Positions 1 to 24,510 of a stretch of 28,167 nt of DNA are shown in pieces. The position numbers and the translations under genes are program-made. Below the pieces are notes generated by a model. The model ran no database searches, was not told the DNA's origin, and saw only the letters and a list, made by a program, of their open reading frames with translations. Location of the stretch: assembly GCA_041690595.1 (NCBI GenBank), contig JAWLHB010000016.1, forward strand, positions 124,001-152,167. Reading direction: 5' to 3'. Source of the stretch: Lentisphaeria bacterium. GTDB taxonomy: Bacteria; Verrucomicrobiota; Lentisphaeria; JABSQK01; JAWLHB01. Numbering within the stretch: the first letter of the stretch is position 1; every line of letters starts with the position of its first letter.

Positions 1-2740
1 TAGTAGGCGCATTCGGGTTGATCTCACGTCCCCCACTCTTTCGGTAAATGTCCACGCTGCCGTACTGCTTCTCCGGCAGCCGCACCCGGCTCCATTCGTC
101 CTGAAAGACGTGGTATTCCGGGATGAAGGGAAGCACCGCCATCTCCTCGAAGTAGACGGGATCGGGATTCGTCAGTGGCTTCGTCTGCGAGGCAAAGCGC
201 ACCACGTCCTCCACCCAATCCTTGACCCCGTGAATCTTCGGCACGTCGTGTTCCTCCTGGAAGCGCTCGAACCAGGCTCGGTCTACCCGCCCCTCGTTCC
301 GCCCCTCGATCACCTTGTCGACCACCTCCCAGTTGTCCATCCACGGCGACTTCCAGGAGCACGAGAGTCCGCCCCAGGGATGAACCGGCAGCCCCACGCC
401 CCCCAGCGTCAGCGCCTTCGTCCGGTAGTCCTCCGGCGTCGGCTTCGTCGGCGAAGCCTGCAGGCCGAATACCAGCTCCGACGCCTCGCGAACGACCCCC
501 GGCACATTGATCAGGTCCACCCGCAGCGTCACCCGCCCCTCCGACCGCACGATACGCATGATCGGCTGCTCGAAATCCTTGGCCGTGATCCACCCCCTGT
601 CGTTCTCGGCAAACCAGGCGATACCCCGCTCCGGCCCGCCCATCCAGATGTAGCCGGTGAAGGCATTCAACCAGCTCGGTTGGCGATAGGTCTGCCGGCT
701 GGTCCAGATCTCGCCATCGCCACTGGGCATGGCCCCCGCGTACGATCGCCGGATGCTGTCCAGCACCTCATGCAGAAGCGTCGCCTCCGCCTCGCGCATG
801 GGAATCTCTATCGAGAGCCGCTGGAGAGCCACCGCCTCGCCGACCGGCTCCAGCCGCATGCTCACCCGCATCATGCCATCCGGCTCCATGGTCGATGTCG
901 TCTCGACACTCAGCGCGGCGCAGCGCGAGCGTGCCCGATAGACCGCTTCATGCGCCGCACTCGTCACCAGCTCGACATCCCCCTCCCACTCCAGCTCGCC
1001 GCCCGCCTCGTTGACCGCCGTCAGCCGCATCGGCGCGGCAAGCAATTCACGCCCCTGTGCCACGACACTCTCCCAAAGCCCGAAGCGGTTCATCTGGTGC
1101 TCACGCAGCACCGTTTCCACCTGCTTCGGCCCTGCTTTCACCGGCGTAAAGGGGGGGAAGACCTCATCCGTCATCCCCAGATCGTTCCCCTCCCAGGCAA
1201 AACGCTGGCGCTTCAACACCAGCGGGTCCGTCTCCCGATCCCCGATCTTCAGGTTGAGCGCATAGTTCCCGCTCGCCAACTCGGGCAACTTGAAATGCTG
1301 ATCTTCCGCCATTAAAGATGCGTCGGCACTGAAAACCAGCTCGCCTTTCTCATCCCGCACCTGCAGGCGCGCGGAGCTTCGGGCAATCTCCTCGTTGGCC
1401 GGGCTGATCTGGACATGCAGATCGCGGCTGCTCGGCAGATGCCAGAAGCGCAGATCCGCCAGCTTCGCCCGCGCCTCCCGCAGGCGGCTCGCATCCACAT
1501 GTCGCCAGTAGAGGTTCGCCGCTTCGCTCGCGCTCAAGGCCCGATCGAAAATATGCACCTCATCCACATCACCAAAGAGCCGGTGATGATTGTACGTCAC
1601 ATCGAGCAGCGCCTCCGGCCCGAAGCGCGCCTCGCTGCTTCCCGCCGCCTCTCCATCCACATACCATTCAAACTTGCCGCTCCCCCAGCTCAACGCGTAG
1701 TGATACCAGCGCTCCGGATAGACCTCCGTCCCCAGCCGGTCCCCGGCGAAGACGAGGATCCCCTGGTTGTCCCGGTAATACGCCGTCAGCGGTCGGAAGT
1801 TGCTGGTCGTGTTGAAGAGGTAGAAGCTGAAGAGACTGGTCGACAGCAACGTCACATTCTGGTCCGAGTAGTTGTTGATTCCCACCGGCCGGCTCCAGAA
1901 GGTGATCGCCCCTTCCGCGGCACTGGCGAAACGGTCGCTGATCGCGATTCTGCCGCGAAAAGCCTGCCCGTGTACCCCATCGACGTAGGCGCCTTCGGTG
2001 ACGATGCCCTCCGGGACGCTACCATCGAAGTCCAGATGCAGCACGGGCCCGGCCGCCGGCGCCAGCACCTGCTCCAGCGGCGCCACCTCCGTCAGCCAGC
2101 TCTGCTCCGGCTTCGGCCACAACTTGGTGATGTTCGTATGCACCCGCACCTCATCCAGAAGGCCCGGCACCCCCTCGCCCACCACGATCGCGCTGCCGAC
2201 CCGTTCCTTCTGCCCGTCCGCCGTCAACCCATGCCCACCTGCCAGCGCCGCCCGGGCAACCTCATGGCCGTTGACATAGAGCACCTGATAGTCGCCCGTG
2301 ACGCTTACCCCCGCAACGTGCATCCACTCGCCCGTCACGGCCAGCCCTTCCGGCGACAGCAACTGCGTCCGCGTGCCCAGGCAATTCTGTACCGCCATAC
2401 CCACCGCACCGGTCGGCTCCAGGAAGAGCTCGAAGCCCCGGGTCGTCCCAGCTTCATGACGCCGCCGGATCAGATGCGCGCGTTCCTCCGGCACCGTCGA
2501 CAGCTTGACCCAGCACTCCATCGACACCTTCCCCGAGAGGTACAGCTCATCCGTCAGCGAGACCCCTTCCGGTCCCTGGTGCGCCCCGCCAAAGCGGCCG
2601 GCCGGCGCACCTTCGGCGTCGAAGCGCTCCAGCAGGAAAGTTGCGGCGTCGGTCTCGTAGGGCTTCCAGAAGGCGGTGTCCACTGCCTGAACGCTGACGG
2701 CAAAGGCCAGGGCGAGCCCGGCGGCAAATCGATGTAGCAT
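1..2740 (-). CDS. Large secreted glycoside-hydrolase-like protein (DUF6067-type core) with two N-terminal LamG-like domains; 3' end lies beyond the left edge (>=913 aa)
   Basis: Translated by hand; not in the ORF track. ATG at 2740 after AAAAGGA. Signal peptide MLHRFAAGLALAFAVSVQA. LamG-like segments SMECWVKL..GEWMHVAGV..LYVNG..LLDEVRV and GAITFWSRP..RWYHYALSW..WYVDG..VDEVHIFDRALS. Then WEGNDLGMTDEVFPPFTP, GIAWFAENDRGW and FGLQASPTKP, motifs shared with three paralogs in the operon. Same frame as the antisense shadow ORFs 110..1315 and 1415..2737. Confidence 0.88.
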   Translation of the reverse strand, partial: MLHRFAAGLALAFAVSVQAVDTAFWKPYETDAATFLLERFDAEGAPAGRFGGAHQGPEGVSLTDELYLSGKVSMECWVKLSTVPEERAHLIRRRHEAGTTRGFELFLEPTGAVGMAVQNCLGTRTQLLSPEGLAVTGEWMHVAGVSVTGDYQVLYVNGHEVARAALAGGHGLTADGQKERVGSAIVVGEGVPGLLDEVRVHTNITKLWPKPEQSWLTEVAPLEQVLAPAAGPVLHLDFDGSVPEGIVTEGAYVDGVHGQAFRGRIAISDRFASAAEGAITFWSRPVGINNYSDQNVTLLSTSLFSFYLFNTTSNFRPLTAYYRDNQGILVFAGDRLGTEVYPERWYHYALSWGSGKFEWYVDGEAAGSSEARFGPEALLDVTYNHHRLFGDVDEVHIFDRALSASEAANLYWRHVDASRLREARAKLADLRFWHLPSSRDLHVQISPANEEIARSSARLQVRDEKGELVFSADASLMAEDQHFKLPELASGNYALNLKIGDRETDPLVLKRQRFAWEGNDLGMTDEVFPPFTPVKAGPKQVETVLREHQMNRFGLWESVVAQGRELLAAPMRLTAVNEAGGELEWEGDVELVTSAAHEAVYRARSRCAALSVETTSTMEPDGMMRVSMRLEPVGEAVALQRLSIEIPMREAEATLLHEVLDSIRRSYAGAMPSGDGEIWTSRQTYRQPSWLNAFTGYIWMGGPERGIAWFAENDRGWITAKDFEQPIMRIVRSEGRVTLRVDLINVPGVVREASELVFGLQASPTKPTPEDYRTKALTLGGVGLPVHPWGGLSCSWKSPWMDNWEVVDKVIEGRNEGRVDRAWFERFQEEHDVPKIHGVKDWVEDVVRFASQTKPLTNPDPVYFEEMAVLPFIPEYHVFQDEWSRVRLPEKQYGSVDIYRKSGGREINPNAPT

Positions 2741-2772
2741 GCGAAGTCTATCCTTTTCGTGCGTGTTGATGC

Positions 2773-3441
2773 TCACCACCCCTGGTGCGTGGCGGAAACC
2801 CATGTCAGATCGAAGGTTGCGGCGGACTTGATGTTGCCGACGTGCCCGTCCGCAAAGAGCAGGCTGGGTCCTCCATGCAGATCGAAGGCCACGGAAGTCT
2901 TCCAGGAATTGGCGTCCATGTAGTAGTTGACCCGCGGCGTACCCCACGCCCATTGGTTGGCGGCATCCGTCAGCATGACCAGATCCACCGGCTTGATGAT
3001 GCCATCGCGCGTGTGGCGGATGTACTCCGACACCTTCCAATGATAGCCGGCGTGCGTGGCGTAGGCATACTTTCCTGGAATCGCATTACCATAGGGCACA
3101 TAGTCATTGGAGGGGCAGACCAGCTCGATCTGCTGCTCCCGTGTCAGATGCCCATCGGTATGAATGGGTTCAGACCAGAAGGTGTAGCTCTCGGTGAAGC
3201 TGGCGTACCTGGTGTCGGTAGCGCTGTAATAGCGGGATGGATACCGGTTCTCATGATCGTCCGCCGAGAAGGTGAACGCCATGAAATACTGCTTGCAGTT
3301 TGACTGGCAGACCGATCGTCGACCCGATTCCCGCGCCCGCGAGAGCGCCGGAAGCAGCAGACTGGCCAGAATGGCGATGATGGCTACCACGACCAGCAAC
3401 TCGATCAGGGTGAACCACAAGCGCTTCTGTACTGCCTTCAT
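2773..3441 (-). CDS. Prepilin-type N-terminal cleavage/methylation protein with C-terminal H-Xn-DG motif (DUF1559-like), pilin-like B, 222 aa
   Basis: [46 protein letters not shown]-terminal [13 protein letters not shown]. Start moved to ATG 3441 (GAGAGGA RBS) because the longer track ORF overlaps the upstream gene. Confidence 0.9.
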
Positions 3442-3487
3442 GCTTTGATCCTCTCGATCAATGGTGGTCAGGTGTAATCCGGGTGGG

Positions 3488-6400
3488 CTAATAGCGGCGA
3501 ATGCCGATAAGGCGGCCGGTATGCGGTTGAAGTGCGGGCAGGCGCACCTTACCCGCGTTCGCGTCGAAGATCGTCGCCGGCTCGTCATCGGGCTTATCCA
3601 GATCGCGCAGACGCACAAACTCCTCCCAGGGAAGCTCCGGCAGCAGCCCCAGAGCAGCCAGATCGACGGTCAGCTCGCCGTCCAGTTTCCGGTCGCGGCT
3701 GTAGTTGAAGACCATGAGCAGGATCCGATCCGCCTGCCGCCAGGCGGAGACCAGCACCTCCGGCGAGGCGCTTTCCACGTAGGGGTTGCGCCAGAAGGGG
3801 ATGTAAACCGTTTCCGCCTCGGCCACTCCCCAGTCCAGCGCTGCCGGAGGGACGCTGTGGCCCCACCCTTTCCAGGTGTCGAACATGCGCGGCCACTCGC
3901 GGAAGCCGCGACGCGCGTGATCCCGCTTCACCGGATCCTGGAAGCGCATCAGCGTCATCCAGGTAATGGCGGAGCCGAATTGACCCGAGACCGACATGGC
4001 GCGCATCCGCTCGATCGGGTAGCCATCGACCCAATCCATCCCCGACTCGTCGCTCACGGCGTGGTACTCGCCATCGAGCACGGCATCCATCCATCCCATG
4101 GCGGGGAGGCAATAACAGTTGGTGGCATGCGAGACCTGCGAATTGGGCGTCAACCCGTGATCGCCCATCAGGCCATACATGCGCATCGTGAACTGGCGAA
4201 TATTGAGCGCATTGAAGGACGGTTGAATGCGGCCATCGGGCAGCTCATACGCCAGACCGGCCTGAACCGATTGCTTGAGTGCCATGAAGAAGATATCCCA
4301 GTAGATGGTGCGCAACCCGCCTTCACGGAAGGCACGATCCGCGATGTAAAGGAAGTAATCCTGCTCCGTCCTGTTCCAGGTGTCGTTCTCCCAGTCCGCC
4401 GCAAAGTACTCCGTGACCCGCTTGTCCGGCGACTTCCAGCCATACCCCATGAGCGGCAGCGAGGTGTGCACCGTCGAGCCATACTTGTTGCGGGCGAGGG
4501 CAGGATCCGTGATCCGGAGTTTCGCCACACGCGCATCGGCAATTTCCTTGTAGCCGGCCCACATCTCGCTCCACTGCTCCGGATCGGTGGAGGGAGGTGT
4601 CAGCCAGTTCCAGCCGTCCACCAGCACCTTGCCATCCTCATCCTTCTGCTTCTTGTTGATCCCGTCGAAGGTGCCATCCTCCGAGTAGGTGACCTCGCGC
4701 CAGTTCCTGGCCATCGGCCGGAAGGGCGAAGCCATATAGGTGAAGTGAATGGTGCGCGGCTCCCTCAGTTCGATCCCCTTGGGTACGATATGGTTGCGAA
4801 TCACAAAGGCATCGCCCTGCCGCACCAGGTCGTGCGCGGGATGTTCATTGTCCGGAAACCACCCGCGATCGCTGTCCGCATGCCAGAGGAAACCACGCTT
4901 CTCGTTGCCGAGCCACAGGGAAGGATAGAAGGAACCGACCGTCATACCGGAACCGTTGATCCCGGTGTCGAGTGTATCCCACACCTTCCCCTGCTGGTCG
5001 CGCGGCAGCACCATCGCCGTCTTCGACGCATAATTGCCTCCCTGGCCCTGGCAGAGGAAACTCTCCGCCTCCGCCGCGGAAATGGGAAACTCCAGTCGCA
5101 GCCCCTCGATCGTCACGGCCTGCCCGGCCGCCGGAGCATACGTTAGATCCAGCAGAACCATCCCATCCTGTTCAAGGCGTCCATCCACCGTGAAGCGCAG
5201 CCCTGCCCCCGTCGCCTCCCCCGTGAAGGGAATGCGCCACGCCGTTTCGGCACCGAAACTCGGCACGCCGATCAGCGGTACCGCCTCTTCCCTGCCGTTC
5301 ACCGTCACGATCAGCCGCGCCGCGCCCCCGCTCACCGTCCGCCCCTGTGAGACGACCGCAGCCGGCAGCCCCAGCGCATCGAGCGTATACTCTCTGCCCC
5401 AGGCGCGAACTGCGGCCCCATCGCGGGTGAGCGCGGTGAAGGGTGCGATGAGCCGCTCCGTGTCGCCGAGCTTTGTCTGCCACCACGCCGCGAAGGCCGT
5501 CGCTTCGTCCAGCTTAGTAAAGGAAACCGTCTCCGGCCCCAATCGCGTTCCGTCCCGAAGCTGCATGGTGGCGCTCAGGATGTACTCCCCGGGCTGCAGG
5601 TCAGGCAGCGGGATCAGCGCGCGATAGACGTAGGTGACCGGATTCCCAATCTCCCCGTCGGCGAGAAGCTTTCCATCCGAAGCCCGACTGATCGTATAGG
5701 CAACCCGTTCAGCGTCTTCAGGCCGCGCCAGATAGTAGGAATCGGCCTCCACCAGGAAATTCGGCTTGACCGGATTGAAGGTGCCGAGCAGCGGAAACGC
5801 TTTCTCCGAGGGTGCGGCCGGCGCCAGCGCATCCTTCGGATAGGCATGCGGCTTGAAGAAATGGAAGTTCGAGAAGATCACCCGCTCATCCTGCTTCACC
5901 TGATGATGCATGAGGAGGAAGGCCTCCTTCGGACTCTCCGGCAGAGGCTTGTCGAGTTGGAACTCCGCCGTCCCACCAGCCTCGATGGTCAGGCTCTCGG
6001 CTTCAACCAATAGTTCTTCCAGACCGGTGATCGCCTTGAGTCCTCCCTTGCCCGTCTCGACCACCGACCAAGTCACGCGCACCTCCACGTTGGCCGGACT
6101 CGCTGCCTGATTGTAGAGGCTGTAGTGCACCGAGGCGAGGCCGTCCAGCGGCCCGGGCAGCTTGTCCATCGTCATCTGCACGGCCACCGCCTTCTCCACC
6201 AGGGTCGCCGTGGGGTATTGCCCCGGATCGAAGTAACTGGTACCGGAGGAGATGCGCGCCTGCGTCCAGCCACTGTACATGTGGTTGAAAGCCATCATCA
6301 CCTTCCACTCGTCGCCGACCTGATTAGGGCCACGAAGTTCATACTCGGCCGCGGGCATGATCACCTCGCATTCCCACCAGCGTCCCCCCAGCGGCGCGCT

Positions 6401-6943
6401 CCCTTCTTCCGTCAACCCCGCCCGCGCCTCGAACCGCGGGTTCCAGTTCTTGAACTGCTGCCCGACCGACACACGGTTGAAGTCGCCGAAGAAGCCCAGC
6501 GTGTTTAGGATGAATTTGAAGGAGCTTGGTGTGGTTCCCTGCACCACATTCTTGCCCAGCGGCATGATGTGGAACTCCGCCCCGTCATCAAAGACGGTAG
6601 CTGCGCCGGGTTGGCGCCCGCGCGCCGAAGGCTTGTACCCGGGTTTCACCCAGGTGCGGATAGCCATGTAGAGGTTCTCCGCGTCCCACGCCAGGTAATA
6701 CGTCGTCGGCCGCGCGATCAACACGTTCGACATGGCGCCACCCACACCGCTGATCGCAGTCGCCTCTCGCCACTCATCCGCCTCGATTCGCCCGTCAAGC
6801 GTGGGCGGATTGCTCATCCTGGGCACGGAAAGGTGCGGCAGCATGCCATCCGGCACCGGCGCCTGCCAGGAAGCCTGTGTCACTCCTGCCAGCGTCAGCG
6901 CCAGCATGCCCGCCACTACCCAACTGATCGTCTGTCGCATCAT
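3488..6943 (-). CDS. Large secreted glycoside-hydrolase-like protein (CBM9-like domain plus DUF6067-type core), ~1151 aa
   Basis: AAGGAG followed by ATGATGATG (6946/6943/6940, exact start uncertain). Signal peptide ending [18 protein letters not shown] (CBM9-like start); [28 protein letters not shown]. Confidence 0.85.
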
Positions 6944-6962
6944 CATCTCTCTCCTTCGTGAT

Positions 6963-8453
6963 TCAAGGCGTATACATGTGGGGACTCGATTCAGGACCGA
7001 CCTGGAACAGGCGCGGCGGACGGGCGCCCGCCCTCTCCGGCAGAGCAAACTCGGCAGCGCTTCCCGCCGCCGCAGGCAGGATCGTCGCATCCGCATCGGC
7101 GCCGATTGCTTCGGCAAATCTGGCGTGTTCGTCACTCTGGTAGAGATAATCGCGGCTGGCCCAGCCACCCTCTTCCTTCTGCACCCGCGTCAGATACTCC
7201 CATTTGGACGCTTCGTAGGCATTGCCCGAGGCACTGACATTCGTGGTGACATCCACTGGATCCTGACCGACTGTCTGCAGGGCGATGATGCGGGTGTTGA
7301 CGTCGCAGTCCACCCAGGCGCAGTTACGCATCGTCAGGCGGCTGGTCGCGGTCATCGCCGCCTGCAGACCGACGGCGAAGCCCTTCAGGGTACAGTTCTC
7401 CATCTCCAAACTGCTATTAAGGTCGCTGAGGTAGATGCCGGTGGCACCACCCACAAATGGGCCGGTCAGCAGGCAATTCTTCAACTTCACCTGAGCGCCT
7501 CGCGTCACCGTCAAGGCCTTCTTGGGATTGCCGCGAATGATGCAGTTCTCCATCTCGAAGCGACCGCTGTAGAGCTCCACGCCCCCCCGCCACGTGTCGT
7601 ACTCGATCAGGCAGTTCTCATACCGCACCACCACCTCCGGATAAACGTCAACGATACCGCAACCCGCGTTGTTGTGGAACCACGCGTTGCGCACGATCAC
7701 CTCCGCACCGTGGTGCGACATCCCCTGATCCATGAAGTAACGAGCTTCGATATTCTCGAAGACGACGTCCTTGTTGCGGTGGGTGGCATAACCATCCGTG
7801 CCACCGTACTCGGTGATGAAATTGCGCACCGTGATATGGCTGCCGGCCACATAGATGCCCCCGCGACCGTCGATCGCCTCCACCCGCACATCGTCCGGCG
7901 TCTTCCCCTCCGGCAGGCAAATGAAAAGCGTGTTGTGAAGCGGATCCTCCTTGGCCTCCTTGCGGTTCTTGTAGAGGAGGTAGCTGTAGGGGACGAGCGC
8001 CTCGCGGCTGATGACGTTACGGCCAGCCTCTCCCTCGAAATGGACCAGCGCGAAGCCCCCTTCCCAGTGCGTCTCCATACCCCACGCATTGTTCCGCAAT
8101 GGGCGACTGAATATCCCTCCACCTTCCGCCTTCCACGCCTCATTCGGCAGCTGCTTCCAGCCGCTGACAACGCTCCCGTGCCCATCGATGACGATCCGCG
8201 CCTCGGGCGTCCCCGACACATGCTCGATACGTATGTCTGACGGATACGCCTCTTCGGTTGGCATCACATGCAGCGTATCCCCCGGCTTCAGCGCCTTCAG
8301 CGCCCGGTCGATCGACTGAAAGGGGGCCTCCCGCGTACCCGCCTGTTCATCGTCCCCGCGCAGATTGTTGACCCAGAACTCACCTCCGAGGCTGAGCGGA
8401 CCGGCCATGGCCAGGATGGCGGCGAACAGCATGGCATAGTGGAATCGTTTCAT
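6963..8453 (-). CDS. Secreted right-handed parallel beta-helix (pectin-lyase-fold) protein, 496 aa
   Basis: GGAGAG RBS, ATG 8453, signal peptide. FWVNNLRGDDEQAGTREAPFQSIDRALKALKPGDTLHV is a typical beta-helix N-cap; repeated Asn/Cys-ladder strands follow (ITVRNF, FENIEA, YENCLI, MENCII, LKNCLL, MENCTL, MRNCAW). Confidence 0.85.
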   Translation of the reverse strand: MKRFHYAMLFAAILAMAGPLSLGGEFWVNNLRGDDEQAGTREAPFQSIDRALKALKPGDTLHVMPTEEAYPSDIRIEHVSGTPEARIVIDGHGSVVSGWKQLPNEAWKAEGGGIFSRPLRNNAWGMETHWEGGFALVHFEGEAGRNVISREALVPYSYLLYKNRKEAKEDPLHNTLFICLPEGKTPDDVRVEAIDGRGGIYVAGSHITVRNFITEYGGTDGYATHRNKDVVFENIEARYFMDQGMSHHGAEVIVRNAWFHNNAGCGIVDVYPEVVVRYENCLIEYDTWRGGVELYSGRFEMENCIIRGNPKKALTVTRGAQVKLKNCLLTGPFVGGATGIYLSDLNSSLEMENCTLKGFAVGLQAAMTATSRLTMRNCAWVDCDVNTRIIALQTVGQDPVDVTTNVSASGNAYEASKWEYLTRVQKEEGGWASRDYLYQSDEHARFAEAIGADADATILPAAAGSAAEFALPERAGARPPRLFQVGPESSPHMYTP

Positions 8454-8470
8454 CGTCTCTCTCCGGTTAG

Positions 8471-11104: not shown

Positions 11105-11120
11105 GGCCCCCTCCTTCCGC

Positions 11121-14100
11121 TCAGAAGCCGGCGCCCTTGGCAAGCGGCAGGTTGAGGAATCCAATGACCCGGAAGTCGCGGGGCTCCACGACGATGCGCA
11201 GCTCATTGGCGATGTGCATCGTGTTGTGCCCACGCTGGAAATCGCCCACTCGCCAGGTATTCGGTTCATCCTTACTGATAGCACCAGGACCGCCAGTCAA
11301 CCAACCGGGGAACTCCATCGTCTCCATATCCCACACGACGCGACGTTCCATGGGATCGGGCATGGCCAGCAGCCGCGGGAAGTCCACCCGCACCAGCGCG
11401 GGCCTCCGGTTCGTGGCATAGTTGGCAACCACCACCCAGAGCACATCCTCGCCACGATAGATGGCAACATCCATATCGGGATCCGCATTGGCAATCCCGA
11501 AGCGCCCCTCCGCCTGCCACGAAGGCATGAACTCGAGCTCCCCACCTGCAATCTTCTTGGACATCAGATAGGCGGACATCAGCCCCATCTTGTACTTGAT
11601 GCTCTGGAAGAACTCCACCCCGTGCGTCAGCATCGTGGCCTGCGCCGTGCGATGCCCTTTCAGCGCCGCGGCTTCGTCCGGCTCGCCAAGCTCATCGGTG
11701 AAGGAGTCCCAGTTGAAGTGATAGAGGTGGCTGAGCTGATAGCCCCATAGGGAGCGATTGTACATCACGTCCATGAAGTCGCGCGGATACATCGTCATGA
11801 AGTCGGGGGTATCGCCACGGGGCGTCGCCATTTCGCCGCCCATGGCCAGGTCGGCAAAGGCCATGATCGGCGCGAACTGGAAGCGCGTGTTGTGAATGCA
11901 GATCGACATCACCGTGTTGTGCTGCTGGAAGACCGTGCGCAAGCGCTTCACGTAGTCCCGCATCTCCCACAGCTGGTACCCCGGCTGAATCCGCCCATCC
12001 GCCAGTTCGTACGCACTGCTCGCCCAACTGTTCTCGCTCGTGCGGTTGAAGAAGTTGTCCATGTAGTAGCCATCGACACCACCATCCCGGCACCACTTGT
12101 CGGTCCAATAGATGCGATTGTCCGTGGCCGAACGGCAGACCGTCGCGCCAGCGGTCAGCGCGTCACTTCCCCACTCGTACTTCAGGTAGTCGTATTCCTC
12201 CGCGAAGAAGTCGGCCGGGCTCAACTCCACATAGGGAACGCTGATCTCGTTGTATCGATGATTCGCCGCCTGATGCACCCGCCACTTCTCCAGGTTGTCT
12301 GGATACATGCGCGCATAAATCTTACTCTTGCTGACCTGCGGATCCCAGCGGCCGGACTCCGTCAAGCCACCGAAGCCAATGACGCTCGTCGGGTTGCTGT
12401 ACTGGCTGAAAGGCCGCGCCGGCGCCACGTGCAGGCCGAAAACGATCGTGCGCGGCCCGCTCAGTTCCACCGCCTCGGCGGCCAGGTTGAAGACCATCTC
12501 CACCGTCTCCTCGTCCGTCCGCACGAACTCGATGGCCGGGCGCGCGTCGGAGGGCCACCACCCCTGATCGTTGTCCGCAAACCAGGTGATGCCGCTGCTC
12601 AGGTTGCCAAGGAAGACGATGGGCACGAAGGAACCGACCGCCATCTTCTGGTGGATAACGCTGGTCGAATCCCAGACCGTGCCGCTCTTTCCCTTACCGG
12701 GCAGGTACCCGGCCTGATTCGACAAGCGCATGTGAAGGCCATTGGCCATATAATGAGTCGCGGCGGCGGCGGGCATCGGGATCACCAGCTGCAGGCTTTC
12801 CAGCTTGGCCGAGCCGGCGAGCGGCTTCATGGTGAGCGTCACTCTGGCGGTGCCGTCGTACTCCAGTTCGTAGCTGGTCTCGGTGACGAGCGGCCCGCCC
12901 TGCCCGGCGCCATTGGCGGCTATGCGCGCGGAGCTGACGCTCGCAAAGGTAGGTTGCGCTCCGGTCGCGGCAACGACGAAGGGCTGGCCCCCGCTGGCGC
13001 CACGCAGCGTTATCGGCGCCGCGAGCAGCTCGATGCCGGCAGCCCTGATCGTGCGCGGCAGCGCTGTCCCTTCCAGCACAATCTGCTTCTGGTAACCGCT
13101 CAGGGTTTCACCGTCTCGGGCCAGAGGCTCGAAGGGGGTCAGGACCACCTCTTCGGTGCCGATGGTATTGTTCAGCCAGGGCAGCTCTTTCGCGTGATCC
13201 TTGCGTACGAAGCTGCTCGTATTCGTCGCCAGAATTGCGCCGGCCTCATCCAGCAGCGCCGCCGAGACGGTATAGGTTCCCGGCTTCATGTCCGCCGGCA
13301 GCGGCACGCGTCCCTGCCCTTTGCCATAGCTGAACGATGTCACGACTCCGGCCCCCAGCAGCTCGCCCCCCTCCGACTTTACCTCAAAGCGGGCCGTCGC
13401 CACCTGCTCCGCCTCTTTCGCGTAGAACTTGTCGATCACCACATCCAGCAGATTGGAGATCGGCTTGTAGGCGGCGGTCACCTTGAATGGCTCCGGATCG
13501 GGCGTGTACTCGCCGCCGGCGAAGTTACCGGGATCGTTGAAGCTGAGCCCCCGGCTCCAGGTATAGAGGGAGCGCTCGCCGTCCAGCACCATGATCGTCA
13601 GCGTATAGGCGCGCCGATCCGGCGCCTCCACCGGCTCGTCGATCATCAGGCTCTGTCGTGCGCCAGCCGCCACCTGAACAGGCAGCCGCTTCTCGTGCAC
13701 GATGGCGTTATCCTTCGCCTTGGGGTCCCAGAGACGCGCCACCAACTCCAGCTCGACCGCCGCCGCGGTGGGGTTGGTCACCTCCATGTCGAAGCGAATC
13801 CCCTTGCCATCCAGAGAGCGAGCAGGATTGATGAGGCTGACGATCGGCGTTTCATCGACGAAGATGCCGGCGATCTTCCACCCATAGAAGCCCGACCACT
13901 CGAAGGGATTCTGCAGGCTGGCGGCCATGCCGAATAGCCAGAGATCTCCCTCCGCGATCGGCTGCTTCCAGTAGACGGACTCCCGCGGAATCGCCATCTC
14001 GGTCTCCCAGTACTCCCCGTCCGGCGTGAGGCGCTGGCCGTACTGCCACTCCGCATCCCAGTCATAGAAGCGCTGGCCGATCTGGTACTGATCTTCCATA

Positions 14101-14672
14101 TCCCAGCGATTGCCGGCCCCATTGCCCATGAACTGCCAGCGGCAGAGCGACGGGTGCGAGCCGAACTGCTTATTGTCGATGTAGAACTCCACCACCGTTT
14201 CCAGCGCGTAAACGTTGTCGTGCCGGGGCTCGCGATTCCAGACGACGGGCTTTTCGTTGGGCCGCATCTTCATGCGCTGGGCGAAGTAGACATGGTCGGG
14301 ATCCCAGCCGATGAAGAAGGTGCTGCCGGGTCTGGCCTTCATGCCGAAGGCTCCCGCGGTACCGGTGTACTCGACCGCGCCCGCCCATTCCTCCGCCTTG
14401 AAGGCGCCATCGATGACCGGCGGCGCCTTCATGCGGGGGATGCGAATCTGCGGTTCGGTGATCGCCGGCGGCGCCTGCTGCTGGGCCTTCTTCAGCGCCA
14501 GCCGCGCCTGAAGGTAGGCCGCCTTGGTCTCCGCCATCCTCGCCTCATCCGTCTGCACCGCGGCCTCGAGTTCCTTGACCTTTGCTTCAAGGCCATCGAT
14601 AGCCTCCGCGCCACCAACGCGAACACCCAGACCGATCAAGGCCATACACACGCACAGCAGATACTTCATCAT
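11121..14672 (-). CDS. Large secreted glycoside-hydrolase-like protein (coiled coil plus CBM9-like domain plus DUF6067-type core), 1183 aa
   Basis: Signal peptide ending GAEA; PPVIDGAFKAEEW; WLNNTIGTEEVVLTPFEP; GITWFADNDQGW; GGVDGYYMDNFF; YELADGRIQP; DLAMGGEM. Confidence 0.85.
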   Translation of the reverse strand: MMKYLLCVCMALIGLGVRVGGAEAIDGLEAKVKELEAAVQTDEARMAETKAAYLQARLALKKAQQQAPPAITEPQIRIPRMKAPPVIDGAFKAEEWAGAVEYTGTAGAFGMKARPGSTFFIGWDPDHVYFAQRMKMRPNEKPVVWNREPRHDNVYALETVVEFYIDNKQFGSHPSLCRWQFMGNGAGNRWDMEDQYQIGQRFYDWDAEWQYGQRLTPDGEYWETEMAIPRESVYWKQPIAEGDLWLFGMAASLQNPFEWSGFYGWKIAGIFVDETPIVSLINPARSLDGKGIRFDMEVTNPTAAAVELELVARLWDPKAKDNAIVHEKRLPVQVAAGARQSLMIDEPVEAPDRRAYTLTIMVLDGERSLYTWSRGLSFNDPGNFAGGEYTPDPEPFKVTAAYKPISNLLDVVIDKFYAKEAEQVATARFEVKSEGGELLGAGVVTSFSYGKGQGRVPLPADMKPGTYTVSAALLDEAGAILATNTSSFVRKDHAKELPWLNNTIGTEEVVLTPFEPLARDGETLSGYQKQIVLEGTALPRTIRAAGIELLAAPITLRGASGGQPFVVAATGAQPTFASVSSARIAANGAGQGGPLVTETSYELEYDGTARVTLTMKPLAGSAKLESLQLVIPMPAAAATHYMANGLHMRLSNQAGYLPGKGKSGTVWDSTSVIHQKMAVGSFVPIVFLGNLSSGITWFADNDQGWWPSDARPAIEFVRTDEETVEMVFNLAAEAVELSGPRTIVFGLHVAPARPFSQYSNPTSVIGFGGLTESGRWDPQVSKSKIYARMYPDNLEKWRVHQAANHRYNEISVPYVELSPADFFAEEYDYLKYEWGSDALTAGATVCRSATDNRIYWTDKWCRDGGVDGYYMDNFFNRTSENSWASSAYELADGRIQPGYQLWEMRDYVKRLRTVFQQHNTVMSICIHNTRFQFAPIMAFADLAMGGEMATPRGDTPDFMTMYPRDFMDVMYNRSLWGYQLSHLYHFNWDSFTDELGEPDEAAALKGHRTAQATMLTHGVEFFQSIKYKMGLMSAYLMSKKIAGGELEFMPSWQAEGRFGIANADPDMDVAIYRGEDVLWVVVANYATNRRPALVRVDFPRLLAMPDPMERRVVWDMETMEFPGWLTGGPGAISKDEPNTWRVGDFQRGHNTMHIANELRIVVEPRDFRVIGFLNLPLAKGAGF

Positions 14673-14700
14673 CGCTTTCTTCCCCGGTCAATTCTTTCGT

Positions 14701-17700
14701 TTATTCCGCTTCCACACCGAGCAGACGGAACCCATGCCCTTCCACCGAAAGCGGCGCCGTCAACACATACCGATTATCCTGCAAGGCGAAGGCCACCGGC
14801 TCACCGCTCTCGAGGTCGAAGATTTGCCTCACCTGCAGCCGCTTTCCGCGCACCGGAATGAGGGCATCGATCTCCAGGCCGGTGCCGGCAAGATCCTTAG
14901 CCTGCGTATCCCCATTGAAGAAGAGCACCGCCGCCGTGCGCAGGCCGGCATTGGAGTAGACACTGGCGTGTACCTGCTCGACAGCCGGCTCCACCATCCC
15001 GGCAGTCAACCAGTAGCCGGCAAAGAGGCAGTTGGTCGTGTCGGCAAGATTGACCAGCCCCCGCATCCGGCTCATCGTTCGCCGCACCGGCAGAAACTCC
15101 TCCTTGGCAAAGGTATAATGGCTCAGCACCGCCGGGTGGATATCATGGCTCATCAGCATCGCCCAGAGGCTGCGCCGCACCTGCTCGTCACGCTCCGGAG
15201 TGGTGCCGGTAAAGCCGCTCAGCCAGGGACGCGCCACCTGCATCGTGCTCTTCGTGCGCGCCATGGCGCGGAACTGCCCGATCGGCCACTGCTGCAGGCT
15301 CGTCATGTCCGCACCATCCGCATACCAGTCGTTCTCCACCATCCAGAAGATCTGCGCAAAACCAAGGTCGACGTGCATGTTCGCCGCCCACAGCGGCGGA
15401 CGCATCAGCTCCCAGCCCAGCGTGTTCAGCCGCTTCACCAGTTGGCGCCGCGGGTAGAGCAGCCAGACTTCCTCCAGACGCCCCAACTCCGCATTGTAGT
15501 CGTTGACCAGACTGATCGAGACATTGTCCCACCACGTCCCGTTGAAGCCCGACTTCTCCAGCAGCGGCTTGTGGTACCAGATGAAAAAGTCGATCATGCT
15601 CTGCGACCAGTTGATGCCGGTGACGGAGAGTTCTTCGTCCGAATCCCACTGTTCAGTCCCCTGGTAATTCCAGCGGCCGGTGTCGCTTGCGGCGCTGCGA
15701 TTGGCCACCCAGTTGCTGCGGCCCAGCCACTCGCCGCCGAAGCTCCGGAACTCTCCCGGCCCCATGCCGGTCAGTTGGCCGCTGCCGTACATCACCAGCT
15801 TGGCGCCATGGGCCAGCTTGTCGACGTAATGCCCGTGCCACCACCCGTAATTGCCCTTGGCGGTACGTTGCGCTTCGCCTTGGTAGCGCGGGCCATAGAG
15901 CACGAACTGGCGAAGCGCCTCGTACTCCTCCGGGGTGCTGTTGACGAAGTCGTCCACGGACTTGCCGTAGTAGCGGTAGCCCCGCGTGTCGTGCGCATCG
16001 AGCCCCTCTTCGTTGTAGGTGCGATAGCGGGGATGGTTCGGCTTGACGGGAGCCGCTTGCAGGGCGAAGCGCATCGTGCGCGCACCGTTCAGTTCCACCG
16101 GGCCCGCCAGCAGGCGCACCCGCAGGCGAACGTTGCCATCCTCCAGCCGCTCCACCTGCACGACCGGCTGCTCATCCGCAAGCTCCCAGCCGGCAGCGCT
16201 CCACGCAAAGAACCAGAGCCCCCGGTCGCCACTGCCGATGTACGTTTGCGGCACGAAGGATTTCCAGTCGAAGCGCGACCCCTTCACCTTCAGCAGCTCC
16301 GTGCTTTGAAAGTGGATGCCGGGCTCGCGCGGAATCGCGTTAAAGTGATTCCCGTAGCGCCCGTCACCAAGCCGCTGCACATACAACGTGTCGATGGGCA
16401 GGCCAGGCTGATCCTTGAGGTCGATCACCAGGTCGGCCGTCTCGATCGTCCCGGCCCCCTCCAGAGTCGCCGCGAACTCCCACCAGCCGTCGTACTCGAC
16501 GAAGCTGGTCAGGTCGGCGGCGATCTCACCCAGTTGCTGACTGCCGCGGATGTCGACGCGGTGCATGGCGGCGCTGGCGATCTCGCTTTCGGCGTCGGCG
16601 ACAGTGGCGATGCCGTCACCCCGGCGCACATCGAGACGCACGGGCGCGGCCAGCAGCGGCAACGGCTGCCCCATGGAACCGGTCGGCGGCCCCACCACGA
16701 TCTGCCCGGGCAATCCCCCCGGCGCGATCGTATAGCTTCGCCCCCACATGCCGACGGTGCGCTCGCGAACCGTCAGCGGCTGGAATGGCGGAATGACCTC
16801 ATCGCTCATCCCAAGCTGGTTGTGCTCCCACGGATACTCCTTGCGGACAAAGGCGGCATCCTTCGCGGAGATCATGCTTCCCGACCCGTCGAATAGCTGG
16901 AAGCTGGCCACGTATTCTCCCGTGCCCAGCTTGGGAAGATCCATCAGAATCGGCGCCCCAACCAGCCCCTCGATGGGGCCGCCGCCGGTGGCCAGCACCG
17001 CCTCCTGCCCCTTGGCGCTGACCGCGACCTGAAAGCGACGCGCGCTCTGCACCTGCTCCGACATGCCGAAGAAGTCGAGATCGACACTTACCTCCAGCTT
17101 GTCGCTGTAGGGCAGATACGCGATCTTGTACTCCCACTCCCCACTTTGCGGGCGGCCCGCGATCCACTTGTCCAGAAACTGCCGGCGAAACTCCTCGTCC
17201 ATCTGCATGAAGGGTGAGCGATTATGAAAGAGCACGATCGACTCTCCGTCGACCTGGGCTATCGCCTTGATCTCGAGGTGGTTGCGCCGGTTACGCTCCG
17301 CGACGGCCACCGTCGAGATGGCAATACCCTGCTTCTGGAAGCTCAACCTTTCTGTATGGTTCGCCGGCAGGGCCACCTCGCGAGACTCCTCATGGACAAC
17401 CTTCCCATCCGCATCCTCGACACGAAGTTCCAGCGTCACCTGGCTGGCGGCGCTGCCGCCCACCAACTCGATTACCGCGTCCAGCTCGCCCGCGCCGATC
17501 TCGCCAAGCTGCAGGAAGCGACAGACGGGAGTCCCGGGTACGAAATCCATGCGGGCAAAGCGCTGCCAATCCATCCAGTGGGTGCCAACCAGGCCCGCGA
17601 AGTACATGCCGGTGCAGGAATCCGTACGCACAAGCTGAATGACCAGATCGCGGGCATCCAGGCTGGCGATGTCCAGGCGGCCGATCTCGATCGCCAGCTC

Positions 17701-18267
17701 CAGTTCCCACACCGACTTCGTCACCCGGCACTTCACCGGGCCGCCCATCGCCCATAGCTGCTCGGTGCCATCGGTGCCGTTGAAGAGGAACTCATCGACG
17801 ATGGCGGCCTTGGGGTTGGCCATGACCTTGTAAAAGCCCTTGCCCTGCGTACTGGCCTGATCGCGTCGGCCATGAGTGAGAATCTGGATCTCGACGTGAT
17901 CCTCAAAAAGCACCGCCGGATGGCCGATGATGAGATCGTCTTCCTTCACCCGCGCCACGGGATAGGTCCCCTCGGGATGGGGCGAGCGCATCGCCATATA
18001 GAGATACGTGTCGTCATAGCCGAGAAACCACTGCACCTGCTGGATACGCGGCACCAGGCTGCCATGTCCGCCCACGCTACCTTCGGCGGTCACCCCCGTG
18101 AAGGCGGCCGCCCGCCCCCACTCCGCGTCGTCGATGGCCCCGTCGATCACCGGCGGCGCCGCCAGCTTCGGTACCCGCAGCACCGGATGAACGAACGCCT
18201 CCGCTGCCTGCACCGCGGAGAACCCAACACAGACCAGCACAAGACAGAGAGCGAGGCTCTTCATCAT
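14701..18267 (-). CDS. Large secreted glycoside-hydrolase-like protein (CBM9-like domain plus divergent DUF6067-type core), ~1188 aa
   Basis: TAAGGTGG RBS 8 nt before ATG 18267. Signal peptide ending AVQA; PPVIDGAIDDAEW; WEHNQLGMSDEVIPPFQP; FALQAAPVKP; GFNGTWWDNV. Confidence 0.85.
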   Translation of the reverse strand: MMKSLALCLVLVCVGFSAVQAAEAFVHPVLRVPKLAAPPVIDGAIDDAEWGRAAAFTGVTAEGSVGGHGSLVPRIQQVQWFLGYDDTYLYMAMRSPHPEGTYPVARVKEDDLIIGHPAVLFEDHVEIQILTHGRRDQASTQGKGFYKVMANPKAAIVDEFLFNGTDGTEQLWAMGGPVKCRVTKSVWELELAIEIGRLDIASLDARDLVIQLVRTDSCTGMYFAGLVGTHWMDWQRFARMDFVPGTPVCRFLQLGEIGAGELDAVIELVGGSAASQVTLELRVEDADGKVVHEESREVALPANHTERLSFQKQGIAISTVAVAERNRRNHLEIKAIAQVDGESIVLFHNRSPFMQMDEEFRRQFLDKWIAGRPQSGEWEYKIAYLPYSDKLEVSVDLDFFGMSEQVQSARRFQVAVSAKGQEAVLATGGGPIEGLVGAPILMDLPKLGTGEYVASFQLFDGSGSMISAKDAAFVRKEYPWEHNQLGMSDEVIPPFQPLTVRERTVGMWGRSYTIAPGGLPGQIVVGPPTGSMGQPLPLLAAPVRLDVRRGDGIATVADAESEIASAAMHRVDIRGSQQLGEIAADLTSFVEYDGWWEFAATLEGAGTIETADLVIDLKDQPGLPIDTLYVQRLGDGRYGNHFNAIPREPGIHFQSTELLKVKGSRFDWKSFVPQTYIGSGDRGLWFFAWSAAGWELADEQPVVQVERLEDGNVRLRVRLLAGPVELNGARTMRFALQAAPVKPNHPRYRTYNEEGLDAHDTRGYRYYGKSVDDFVNSTPEEYEALRQFVLYGPRYQGEAQRTAKGNYGWWHGHYVDKLAHGAKLVMYGSGQLTGMGPGEFRSFGGEWLGRSNWVANRSAASDTGRWNYQGTEQWDSDEELSVTGINWSQSMIDFFIWYHKPLLEKSGFNGTWWDNVSISLVNDYNAELGRLEEVWLLYPRRQLVKRLNTLGWELMRPPLWAANMHVDLGFAQIFWMVENDWYADGADMTSLQQWPIGQFRAMARTKSTMQVARPWLSGFTGTTPERDEQVRRSLWAMLMSHDIHPAVLSHYTFAKEEFLPVRRTMSRMRGLVNLADTTNCLFAGYWLTAGMVEPAVEQVHASVYSNAGLRTAAVLFFNGDTQAKDLAGTGLEIDALIPVRGKRLQVRQIFDLESGEPVAFALQDNRYVLTAPLSVEGHGFRLLGVEAE

Positions 18268-18290
18268 CGTCTTCACCACCTTATTGAAAA

Positions 18291-18300
18291 TTAACGTTAA
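18291..18300. promoter_or_regulatory. Putative LacI-family operator O3 (TTAACGTTAA)
   Basis: Perfect 10-bp palindrome with central CG in the 36-nt gap between pilin-like A and the next gene; shares the TAACGTTA core with the sites at 19025 and 20155. Confidence 0.7.
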
Positions 18301-18303
18301 CTG

Positions 18304-19008
18304 CTACAGCTGCCATGGAGCGATCTTGTTTGTCCAGGAAACCTTGCGAGGTAACGTCATGGACTCCACGTGACCATCCCAGAATGACATCACCGAGGCT
18401 CCGGTGTCCGCCCCCCGATGCGGCGTGCCGGCAAACGTGGAATGGAAAGTATCCAGCGGGTGGAGGCTGGCACGCGTCACGCCACGCGGGTCCCCTGCTT
18501 CAATGGTCATGAAAAGCAGACTCGGCTCGGTCACCCAGCTCACGCGAGTGCCGCCCCAGTGGTCAGCCGACGTCAGATTGTTGTAGGTGTACTTGCGCTG
18601 CGAAGGCGTGGTCAACACCCGCTTGGGCGGATAGCCGGTCACCGTATAGCCACTGCGCCAGGTAGCTGAACTTCCCCACGGATAGCCGCGCATCATCCAG
18701 TCCTTGCTGCTGGGACAGGCCCAGATGCCGGTTTCGTTGACGGGCAACGGAACCACCACCAGGTCGGCTTCATGCAGCTGCCGATACCAGTAGTGGCCCA
18801 TCGGAAAAAGATCCTCAAAATCATCGCCATAGAAGGTGAAGGTCATGTAGATCTGCTTCTGGTTGTTGGCGCATGATGCCTGCTTGGCCATCTCACGCGC
18901 CCGCGTCAGCGCCGGCAGCAGCATGCTGGCCAGAATGGCGATTATCGCTACCACGACCAGCAGTTCGATCAGGGTGAAGGCATCTCTGTGTTGGCGTGTA
19001 CGGCTCAT
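18304..19008 (-). CDS. Prepilin-type N-terminal cleavage/methylation protein with C-terminal H-Xn-DG motif (DUF1559-like), pilin-like A, 234 aa
   Basis: AAGGAG RBS, ATG 19008. [71 protein letters not shown]. Confidence 0.9.
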
Positions 19009-19024
19009 GATGGTCTCCTTGGTT

Positions 19025-19036
19025 TGTAACGTTAAA
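19025..19036. promoter_or_regulatory. Putative LacI-family operator O2 (TGTAACGTTAAA)
   Basis: Identical 12-mer to 20155-20166; lies a few nt upstream of the pilin-like A RBS. Confidence 0.75.
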
Positions 19037-19062
19037 GAGTCTCGTTCGAAGTTAAGGCACAA

Positions 19063-20139
19063 CTAGGCTGGTGGGGCGGTGCTGCCGCGGAGGACCAGTT
19101 CGACTGGCATGTGTAGGGTTTCGTCGCTGAAGTGGTCCGCGCGGATCTTCTTCAGCAGCAGTTCAGCGGAACGTCTTCCAATCTCTTCGAGAGGAAGTCG
19201 CACGGTGGTAAGCAGATTTCCGCCGTCCGGGCCCGGCAGGGTATGGGTATCGTCGAAGCCGATGAGGCTGATGTCATGCGGCAGGCGGAAGCCGTCGGCT
19301 TCGAGCCAGCCGGCGAGGAGACATGCAGTCATGTCGTTGGCGCCAAAAATAGCCCGGCAGCCAGGATGCTGCGCCAACATGGTTCGCAACATCTCGCGAC
19401 TGCGCTCCGGTTCCTCCGTCCAGTACGGCATCAGGTGAACGGCGGCATCCGGATCCAGACCGCGATCGAGGCATGCCTGCCGGCACCCTTTCACCCGCTG
19501 TCGGTGCTGCCAGCGGTCGAAGGTGACACACAGAAGCTCCCGATGCCCCAGATCCAGGAGGTGCGACATCAGCGCATGGCCGCCACCGACATCGTCTACC
19601 AGTACGCAGGAGCAATCCTCCTGCGCTTCCATGATGCAGACAATGGGCCGATGCCCGAAGCCTGGTTCGGCTCGCAGCATGGTCACGATGCTCTCGATGT
19701 GCGGAATGCCCGAAAGCGTGAGTACACCATCCACCTCCCCGCGGCCGAAGATGGTCGGCAGTTTGCTCGGCAGGACCCTGTCCATCGGCGTCCAGTTGCT
19801 CAGCAGCGAAAAGCCCGCCTGGTCGAAGACGTCGCCAATGCCCTGCAGCAATTGGGTAAAATAGGTGCCATGCGCGTGACGCAGCGAGAAGTAGAGACCG
19901 ACGAGCTGATTGATCAGGTTGGGCTCTTCCGCGCCATATCGCAACCGCCTGGCCGCCAGCGTCTGGGCCGGATTGTAGCCCAACTCGAGCGCCGCTTCCC
20001 GAACCCGCGCCACCGTTTCCGGACGCAGGGAATCGCACTTTTCGCGCAGAGCCATGGATACCGTCATAACGCTCAAGTCGCAAAGGTCCGCGATGTCCCG
20101 TTGCGTGACTGTCGGCTGCTTGGCTCGTTTGGCTATCAT
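19063..20139 (-). CDS. LacI-family transcriptional regulator, 358 aa
   Basis: HTH VTQRDIADLCDLSVMTVSMALR; AALELGYNP..AARRLR hinge; periplasmic-binding-fold motifs HLLDLGHR, AIFGANDMTA, LPHDISLIGFDD, LTTVRLP, LVLRGST. Confidence 0.95.
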   Translation of the reverse strand: MIAKRAKQPTVTQRDIADLCDLSVMTVSMALREKCDSLRPETVARVREAALELGYNPAQTLAARRLRYGAEEPNLINQLVGLYFSLRHAHGTYFTQLLQGIGDVFDQAGFSLLSNWTPMDRVLPSKLPTIFGRGEVDGVLTLSGIPHIESIVTMLRAEPGFGHRPIVCIMEAQEDCSCVLVDDVGGGHALMSHLLDLGHRELLCVTFDRWQHRQRVKGCRQACLDRGLDPDAAVHLMPYWTEEPERSREMLRTMLAQHPGCRAIFGANDMTACLLAGWLEADGFRLPHDISLIGFDDTHTLPGPDGGNLLTTVRLPLEEIGRRSAELLLKKIRADHFSDETLHMPVELVLRGSTAPPA

Positions 20140-20154
20140 GAATAGAGGCCGCCC

Positions 20155-20166
20155 TGTAACGTTAAA
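20155..20166. promoter_or_regulatory. Putative LacI-family operator O1 (TGTAACGTTAAA) overlapping the predicted transcription start
   Basis: Begins 2 nt downstream of the -10 element on the minus strand; CG-centred palindromic core. Confidence 0.8.
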
Positions 20167-20168
20167 CC

Positions 20169-20197
20169 AGTATAGGATTATGCCTCCCGCATGTCAA
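20169..20197 (-). promoter_or_regulatory. Sigma70-type promoter of the lacI-led operon
   Basis: Minus strand reads TTGACA (20197-20192), a 17-nt spacer, then TATACT (20174-20169): perfect -35, 5/6 -10, optimal spacing. Confidence 0.85.
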
Positions 20198-23633: not shown

Positions 23634-23930
23634 GGCGACCTCCCCGTAAGTGTTGCTCCAGCATATCCCCTTCCCCATGGCGTGTCCAGTCGGTCCGGGC
23701 CAGGCCTGTCAGGTTCCATATCGACCAGTCGCCCTGCATGGCTAGCTCACTTGGGGCCACGGATGAAGTAAAAGAAGCTGCCATCCTTCTACATCTTGAT
23801 GAGCTGTATGATCTTTTATACGGTAACGTCAGGGATTTTTGCAGTCGAAATCAAGACGCCAGCGAGATTGGATCTGATTCGGCCGCACCTTCTGCTCAGG
23901 CGCAAGATGAAATCCATGAGAGCGGTGTTC

Positions 23931-24457: not shown

Positions 24458-24510
24458 GCATCTATCCGTCAATTCAACCAATCCACAGAAAACAACATGG
24501 AGACACTATA

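Follow-up and report, generated by a model that had tools for sequence, protein, structure and literature searches.

The window analyzed in this work, a stretch of 28,167 nucleotides from the Lentisphaeria-like genome G000 (8.1 Mb, 97% complete; contig C16, positions 124001-152167), contains a predicted operon in which a LacI-family regulator is followed by two prepilin-type genes, pilA and pilB, and by genes for large glycosidase-like proteins. We tentatively propose, with a probability of about 0.4, that the two pilins are inducible subunits which bind glycans and build into a shared type IV filament that feeds periplasmic enzymes via a secretin, a scheme for which we infer the binding, the processing, the assembly, the uptake, and the location of the enzymes. 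The proposal was suggested by the position of pilin genes directly behind sugar-type regulators throughout the genome, the predicted pilin fold of PilA, operator-like sequences repeated within the operon, and the scarcity of transporters.

Organization of the operon

The operon consists of nine minus-strand genes separated by successive gaps of 54, 36, 28, 16, 17, 16, 46, and 32 nt, and encodes LacI, the two pilins, four GH123_N-type paralogs (E1 to E4), a beta-helix protein, and a PcRGLX-like protein. The ninth gene, encoding E4 (1575 aa), stops 1987 nt beyond the left edge of the window, where it faces a convergent gene, and the operon is therefore about 22.1 kb long. A sigma-70-type promoter (TTGACA-17-TATACT; 20169-20197, minus strand) matches 11 of 12 consensus nucleotides and is the sole consensus promoter, as no second promoter-like site was found across positions 1-19100. 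By this layout, the LacI gene, the two pilin genes, and six enzyme-like genes are one unit. Long open reading frames (ORFs) on the opposite strand had no Pfam match and were discarded as shadows. The first-pass annotation of this DNA had described nine co-oriented genes with 16-54 nt gaps behind one strong promoter and a LacI regulator, in an operon of at least 20 kb, and the gaps, the promoter match, and the length found here bear this out. Its further statement that each prepilin gene lies directly upstream of a large secreted paralog resembling glycoside hydrolases (GH) also held, as the pilin-adjacent paralogs match GH123_N and have signal-peptide-like N-termini when judged by eye. Genes were called with our own hexamer script, with pilin genes supplemented by profile, and the gene counts below carry the resulting uncertainty. 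The closest named homologs of the proteins are from Lentisphaerae and Victivallales records (57-66% identity).

Pilin-like proteins and their association with sugar-type regulators

PilA (234 aa; 18304-19008, minus strand; N_methyl, 32.6 bits) is a prepilin-type protein with Glu5, Pro22, a cysteine pair, and an H-X13-DG motif, and PilB (222 aa; 2773-3441, minus strand; TIGR02532, 21.7 bits with a cut-off of 16.3) is a prepilin-type protein with H-X8-DG, whose head could not be aligned with that of PilA. The prepilin motif TIGR02532 was above the cut-off in both proteins, and PF07963 was above it in PilA and below it in PilB. The first-pass annotation had assigned both to the DUF1559/H-Xn-DG type. 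Both carry the prepilin motif and the C-terminal H and DGH, with spacings of X13 and X8, but the DUF1559 cut-off was not reached: PF07596 scored 17.8 bits with PilA against a cut-off of 23.3 and gave no match with PilB. PF07596 was matched at E ≤ 0.01 by 78 of the 89 aligned homologs, and TIGR04294 (H-X9-DG) was matched by 14 paralogs when 150 of 327 candidates were scored, with neither PilA nor PilB among the matches listed. By these profile comparisons, PilA and PilB are divergent DUF1559-type pilins that fall below the family cut-off. The structural model of PilA (mean predicted local distance difference test score, pLDDT, 76.6) contains an N-terminal helix of 51 residues and, at the C-terminus, a hairpin, and the top 19 of 50 structural rows were pilins or pseudopilins, the best with Z 5.5 and a root mean square deviation (rmsd) of 3.5 over 119 residues, which predicts a type IV pilin fold. 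A Foldseek search with PilA gave no match under E 0.001.

A profile search identified 180 pilin paralogs in the genome. Among the 178 that start at Phe1, Glu5 is present in all 178, Pro22 in 176, and Cys36 in 177. In this helix, the codons of identical residues differ at a rate of 0.61 versus 0.57 expected from free draws; synonymous sites are saturated, and therefore the helix is held by selection on the protein, while recent duplication or gene conversion as the source of its constancy was ruled out on the same ground. Among the heads, 115 of 180 have no paralog at 55 bits. Their tyrosine and tryptophan content is 10.2%, compared with 4.7% in other proteins and 6.9% in the heads of 12 other pseudopilin-type proteins, which is a weak hint of sugar binding.

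The first-pass annotation had named a lack of enrichment of pilin genes in carbohydrate loci as counting against its idea, whereas we observed strong enrichment behind sugar-type regulators and before large exported proteins. The genome contains 121 sugar-type regulators with PF13377, and 57 of 179 pilin genes lie directly behind such a regulator on the same strand. The same position is taken by 54 of 5249 other genes and, in a size-matched set, by 8 of 1734 genes. Seen from the regulators, a pilin is the next gene in 57 of 120 cases, and one is found within five genes of 93 of the 121, versus 1093 of 5211 other genes. Genes downstream of pilins looked exported, by a crude rule, in 61 of 126 cases versus 804 of 5211, and 76 of 179 pilin genes precede a gene of at least 700 aa (versus 536 of 5233). 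The families enriched downstream of pilins included DUF4838 (17 of 60 members directly behind one) and the E family, to which E1 belongs (11 of 34), as well as CBM9-, GH123-, and GH95-type families, in a scan of 20 family representatives of which several had no match or were unrelated to sugars. The regulator-pilin arrangement is a typical trait of the lineage and not unique to the window.

The heads follow the enzyme family and not a single enzyme. In G000, of 45 pairs of non-adjacent pilins whose heads are similar, 15 have a neighbouring family in common, versus a base rate of 8.2%. At the same time, similar heads precede enzymes that are only 24% identical, two enzymes that are 38% identical follow unalignable heads, and pilA-type heads precede enzymes of three well-supported clades, by which a one-to-one pairing of pilin and enzyme was ruled out. 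These shuffled pairings are easier to reconcile with a common substrate than with a common protein interface. A complex prediction with the PilA head and residues 481-1188 of E1 scored 0.00 and counts neither for nor against an interaction. The suggestion in the first-pass annotation that the pilins are adaptors assembled by a machine encoded elsewhere was therefore retained in part: a pilin fold is predicted and assembly machines are found elsewhere in the genome, but the adaptor specific to the adjacent enzyme was not borne out, as homologous heads precede enzymes of different clades.

Occurrence in other genomes

Loci resembling that of E1 contained a pilin in 23 of 55 cases and a transporter match in 3 in GTDB, and a pilin in 10 of 35 cases and a transporter match in 1 in metagenomes, several of these loci being short or near-duplicates and transporters having been sought only with G000 proteins. 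Heads of the pilA type occurred in 3 of 350 other genomes of the class, with an E-family gene directly downstream in all three (base rate 11/180 in G000), and scans of metagenomes and of 401 genomes of the phylum with the PilA head yielded no further locus. In a FastTree phylogeny of 41 sequences, which excluded family members shorter than 900 aa, the E-family genes behind pilA-type heads fall in different clades; the neighbour in genome G118 is a fragment outside the tree. PilA of G118 is 64% identical to that of G000, versus 37-46% for the neighbouring enzymes, and since its identity exceeds that of the enzymes, the heads are conserved and not hypervariable. Between families, head conservation is 64-67%. 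Heads of the pilB type were found in 7 of the 350 class genomes and in 2 of 42 pilin ORFs from E1-like loci (L032 and L128). Locus L032, whose record is titled Neomarinimicrobiota, has its pilB-type head (37%) near an E1 homolog, which may reflect transfer or misbinning.

The pilin family was present in all 121 class genomes searched. The numbers of pilins and regulators in these genomes correlated with a rho of 0.84, which was 0.78 after accounting for genome size and 0.64 over 20 families, with counts of unscored first-look candidates that are a rough proxy (285 and 138 in G000, where scoring gave 180 and 121). A TonB receptor match was absent in 24 of the 37 genomes with at least 150 pilin candidates, and none was found in the 60 genomes of families f31 and f32.

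Regulator, operators, and the predicted substrate

The LacI-family repressor (358 aa; 19063-20139, minus strand) contains PF00356 and PF13377. A palindrome pattern search identified three operator-like sites in the operon, which the first-pass annotation had missed: O1 (TGTAACGTTAAA; 20155-20166) directly 3' of the -10 box, O2 (19025-19036), the same 12-mer, before the ribosome-binding site of pilA, and O3 (18290-18301), with one mismatch, between pilA and E1. A central CG is typical of LacI-family operators. The 11-letter palindromic pattern yielded 6 matches on both strands at these three sites, versus 0.08 expected, and the 8-letter core has 9 copies in the genome, all intergenic and 3 of them in this operon. 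A fourth, near-identical operator lies before two Melibiase (GH36) genes and a DUF1961 gene on contig C25 (36290-41580), which are probably a distant part of the same LacI regulon. The co-regulation proposed in the first-pass annotation is thus supported at the sequence level by operator-like sites shared by lacI, pilA, E1, and the GH36 pair. The operator-GH36 link holds independently, because in locus L112 a GH36 homolog (69% identical to the C25 gene) directly follows an E1 homolog; GH36 homologs are also found in L050, L018, L029, weakly in L023, and in the pilB locus of genome G212. The repetition of an operator before both regulator and pilin was rejected as a general rule, being seen in 1 of 57 pairs, that of this locus, versus 0-3 in 12 shuffles, and so appears to be special to this locus.

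E1 (1188 aa; 14701-18267, minus strand) is a putative exported glycosidase with GH123_N. Its model (pLDDT 91) has a CBM9-like domain (Z 16.1 with 1i82 in a structural alignment), immunoglobulin-like domains, a beta-supersandwich, an alpha/beta barrel, and a C-terminal sandwich, and residues 502-1188 aligned with the galactosaminidase 9awt, a GH36-type supersandwich and barrel glycosidase, with Z 12.4 and rmsd 7.7 over 520 residues. Residue D914 of E1 is invariant in 46 homologs and is aligned in all four paralogs, and by analogy with such glycosidases it may be catalytic. GH123_N and the aligned barrel Asp were likewise found in E2 (1183 aa; 11121-14672), E3 (1152 aa; 3488-6946), and E4, a LamG-LamG-GH123_N paralog whose 5' part is in the window (1-2740) and which ends at C16:122013, all on the minus strand. 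In contrast to GH123, the four proteins match PF19543 only and not the catalytic domain PF13320, and unlike GH123_N proteins and 9awt-type glycosidases they carry extra CBM9-like or LamG domains and have no PDB sequence match. PDB sequence searches with E1, with the E1 alignment, and with the PcRGLX-like protein gave nothing useful, and Foldseek with E1 returned mostly beta-galactosidases with low TM-scores. Together, the profile matches and the model suggest that E1 to E4 probably form an uncharacterised glycosidase family. The fourth operator at the GH36 pair and the alignment of E1 to a galactosaminidase point to an alpha-galactoside- or galactosamine-type glycan as the predicted target of the operon.

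Transporters and assembly machinery

The first-pass annotation had noted no TonB receptor, SusD, ABC, or MFS gene in the window and had asked what lies to its left. No match to a TonB receptor, SusD, ABC permease, MFS_1, MFS_2, SSS, or OprB was found on contig C16 (tripartite ATP-independent periplasmic and phosphotransferase systems were not searched), and the 40 kb to the left of the window contain, for the families searched, no transporter, with two further regulator-pilin cassettes and housekeeping genes. The whole genome has 4 TonB receptors, no SusD, and no OprB. A listed transporter gene occurs in the five-gene neighbourhood of 10 of 180 pilin genes, 9 of 121 regulator genes, and 0 of 34 E-family genes; for the other genes the count is 343 of 5286.

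Machinery for the assembly of pilins is present elsewhere in the genome, where 6 matches to secretins and 20 of the T2SSE/PilT type were found. There are also two clusters of the type II secretion type, and PilM-secretin clusters lie on C2 and C7. The cluster on C7 (125517-133481), in which a DUF1559-type gene is followed by genes for a secretin, PilM, two unknowns, and PilB, is by its gene content a candidate assembly machine for the pilin family. The single PilD (418 aa; C11:11189-12445) has both Pfam domains. It carries a long insertion before the second Asp motif, which might be related to a relaxed specificity at position -1. On C37 (70958-75063), a pilin-like gene is followed by genes of 209 and 339 aa, an ABC permease, and an ATPase, adjoining a secretin-PilB cluster.

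Proposed mechanism and alternatives

In the proposed mechanism, a breakdown product of the alpha-galactoside- or galactosamine-type glycan would relieve LacI repression, and the enzymes would reach the periplasm by Sec. PilA and PilB would use their invariant N-terminal helix to enter a common type IV filament machine whose genes lie elsewhere, and their aromatic-rich heads would bind the glycan. Extension and retraction of the filament through the secretin would then deliver the glycan to periplasmic glycosidases, and a few general inner-membrane transporters would import the products. On this view, the 180 paralogs would make up a library of subunits that are specific for particular glycans, can replace one another, and are each induced together with their enzymes. 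As a still more tentative generalization, such a DUF1559-type library on a shared retractile machine could import glycans across the Planctomycetes-Verrucomicrobia-Chlamydiae (PVC) superphylum and its neighbours, as a third general route next to SusCD and ABC transporters; in Lentisphaeria, the rule for prepilin cleavage would then be relaxed.

Several observations weigh against the filament proposal. Gly-1, canonical for PilD substrates according to passages of PMC3584216, is replaced by Ala in PilA and by Trp in PilB, and no more than 16 of the 180 paralogs have it. Among 12 other pseudopilin-type genes of the genome, 1 has Gly-1, which makes the objection milder without lifting it. In E1-like loci of other genomes, 22 of 38 pilins keep the residue; a relaxed prepilin peptidase in the lineage could account for its absence here, the alternative being no cleavage. 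The structural scores of the PilA model are middling. Of 6 informative genomes with pilB-type heads, only 3, two of them from one genus, have an E-family gene following within two genes, and the closest PilB homolog (G118, 53%) stands alone on a 30 kb contig that lacks E-family genes. No PF13377 regulator is found within ten genes of 58 of 180 pilins, and the co-divergence of pilin heads and regulators was not significant (Mantel rho 0.04, p 0.15, n=57). The scaling of pilin with regulator counts comes from related genomes and lacks a non-sugar control family, and pilin and TonB receptor counts showed no inverse relation (rho 0.10). Furthermore, passages of PMC2754498 describe family members in Rhodopirellula as stress-regulated and passages of PMC10632474 describe two members in Planctopirus as essential, and therefore not all members need serve sugars.

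Because of the cleavage problem, it has to be considered that the pilins remain uncleaved and unpolymerised and act as periplasmic sugar binders or sensors anchored in the inner membrane, handing products to general transporters or signalling the substrate. We regard this as unlikely, although it is the alternative to be taken most seriously. It would accommodate the 164 of 180 paralogs without Gly-1 and the paralog preceding an ABC permease cluster on C37, and, according to passages of PMC8567305, Tuwongella proteins with N_methyl and SBP_bac_10 were detected in fractions S2 and S3 and plain pilins in S2. However, a plain anchor has no need for the invariant Phe1, Glu5, and Pro22, Gly-1 is likewise missing from pseudopilin-type genes in the genome's own secretion clusters, homologs elsewhere often keep it, and passage through the outer membrane would be left unexplained with so few TonB receptors and no OprB. 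Somewhat less credible is the idea that the pilins act in type II secretion as pseudopilins that select substrates, and export the co-transcribed enzymes or display them at the cell surface. The position of each pilin directly before a large exported enzyme, the excess of long genes behind pilins, and the two type II secretion-type clusters speak for such a role, whereas the separate enzyme clades behind pilA-type heads, the shuffled identities of heads and enzymes, and the 23 of 34 E-family genes without a pilin directly upstream speak against it.

The regulation, the fold, and the conservation of the heads would be equally expected if the pilins were glycan-specific adhesins on pili that keep the cell attached to the particle it digests, with sugars entering by another, unrecognised route, and MUL2 of Akkermansia has been described as an attachment system (PMC13174399). 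Such adhesins would leave the scarcity of outer-membrane transporters in pilin-rich genomes unexplained, and we consider this reading improbable. Finally, an expanded family could be carried along by mobile catabolic cassettes without contributing to the use of glycans, as might be suspected from the shuffled pairings, the stand-alone pilB homolog, and the slightly lower G+C content of pilin genes (0.588 versus 0.615 in other genes). The fixed position behind the regulator, the dedicated operator before pilA, the purifying selection on the helix, and the conservation of heads between families make such an incidental link very improbable.

Other genes of the operon and neighbouring regions

The remaining operon genes, both on the minus strand, encode an 877 aa protein with a weak match to PcRGLX-type alpha/alpha toroids and no evident signal peptide (8471-11104; PF21346, 23.5 bits with a cut-off of 23.8) and a 496 aa exported right-handed beta-helix protein (6963-8453; PF13229). 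Directly upstream of the promoter, a gene for an 896 aa protein (20222-22912, minus strand) has no Pfam match, is GH38-like in the ESM Atlas (score 0.91), and may be part of the same catabolic region. The genes in 23283-27992 are unrelated to the operon: a thioesterase (minus strand), two small exported-looking proteins without a family (24023-24457 and 24511-25596, Gln/Lys-rich), and a large-subunit catalase (25845-27992). The cassettes to the left of the window are a GntR-LacI fusion with a pilin, a DUF4838 pair, a sulfatase, and GH4 (C16:114216-121865), and a regulator with two pilins and a 1074 aa protein without a known family (C16:88683-106025). Across the genome, the 34 GH123_N-type genes and the 60 DUF4838 genes are large expansions of uncharacterised exported proteins and likely represent new glycosidase families.

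Comparison with known systems

PVC bacteria are major polysaccharide degraders with periplasmic uptake, mostly without SusCD, and this locus links their route of import to the function of DUF1559. No established function for the DUF1559 family, one of the largest gene families in PVC bacteria, appears in the literature found, and no paper linking it to sugar regulators or glycan enzymes was found in a search that covered subscription journals and supplements poorly. Passages of PMC11361711 and PMC13526803, with a term search in five supplements, contain nothing about these proteins. The locus makes the role of the family testable through two small soluble heads, an operator, a predicted inducer class, and candidate assembly clusters, the predicted substrate class being alpha-galactoside-type from the operator common to the GH36 genes. 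The heads themselves would be a large untapped set of glycan-binding modules.

With the DUF1559/SBP_bac_10 (PF07596) and H-X9-DG (TIGR04294) family of PVC bacteria, the pilins share the N_methyl motif, the helix-Cys region, the C-terminal H..DGH hairpin, and the large expansion, but the Lentisphaeria form is shorter, below the PF07596 cut-off, spaced by X13 and X8, and, at this locus, linked to a particular regulator, operator, and enzyme family. In Tuwongella, passages of PMC8567305 report that DUF1559-type members are often flanked by signal-peptide genes and that 25 of 91 two-domain proteins were detected. With type IV pilins and type II secretion pseudopilins (PilA4, ComP, EpsG), they share the fold, Phe1, Glu5, Pro22, and a basic leader, and differ in lacking Gly-1, in the larger variable head, and in the 180 paralogs per genome. 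ComP, a minor pilin that binds a ligand and serves in uptake, sets a precedent.

The locus shares with Bacteroidota polysaccharide utilization loci (PULs), at the sequence level, a sugar-sensing regulator, clustered exported glycan enzymes, and a locus-specific non-enzymatic protein, but it has no SusC/SusD pair, LacI replaces control by hybrid two-component systems or extracytoplasmic function sigma factors, and its specific part has a pilin fold; it is thus PUL-like in its working and falls outside PUL membership. Planctomycete clusters of carbohydrate-active enzymes are uncharacterised according to passages of PMC11131199, and passages of PMC5394234 describe dextran as binding to planctomycete pili-like fibres and accumulating in the periplasm. 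A precedent is MUL2 of Akkermansia, a member of the same superphylum, where a type IV-like pilin has been linked to glycan attachment and uptake (PMC13174399). MUL2 is one conserved four-gene locus with PilM, whereas here the pilins are many, variable, and dispersed in enzyme operons apart from the assembly genes, and a domain search of the operon proteins found no PilM or assembly gene. The system described here is a variant of the glycan-utilisation locus with a precedent in MUL2, and this example is distinguished by an operator-defined regulon and a clue to its substrate.

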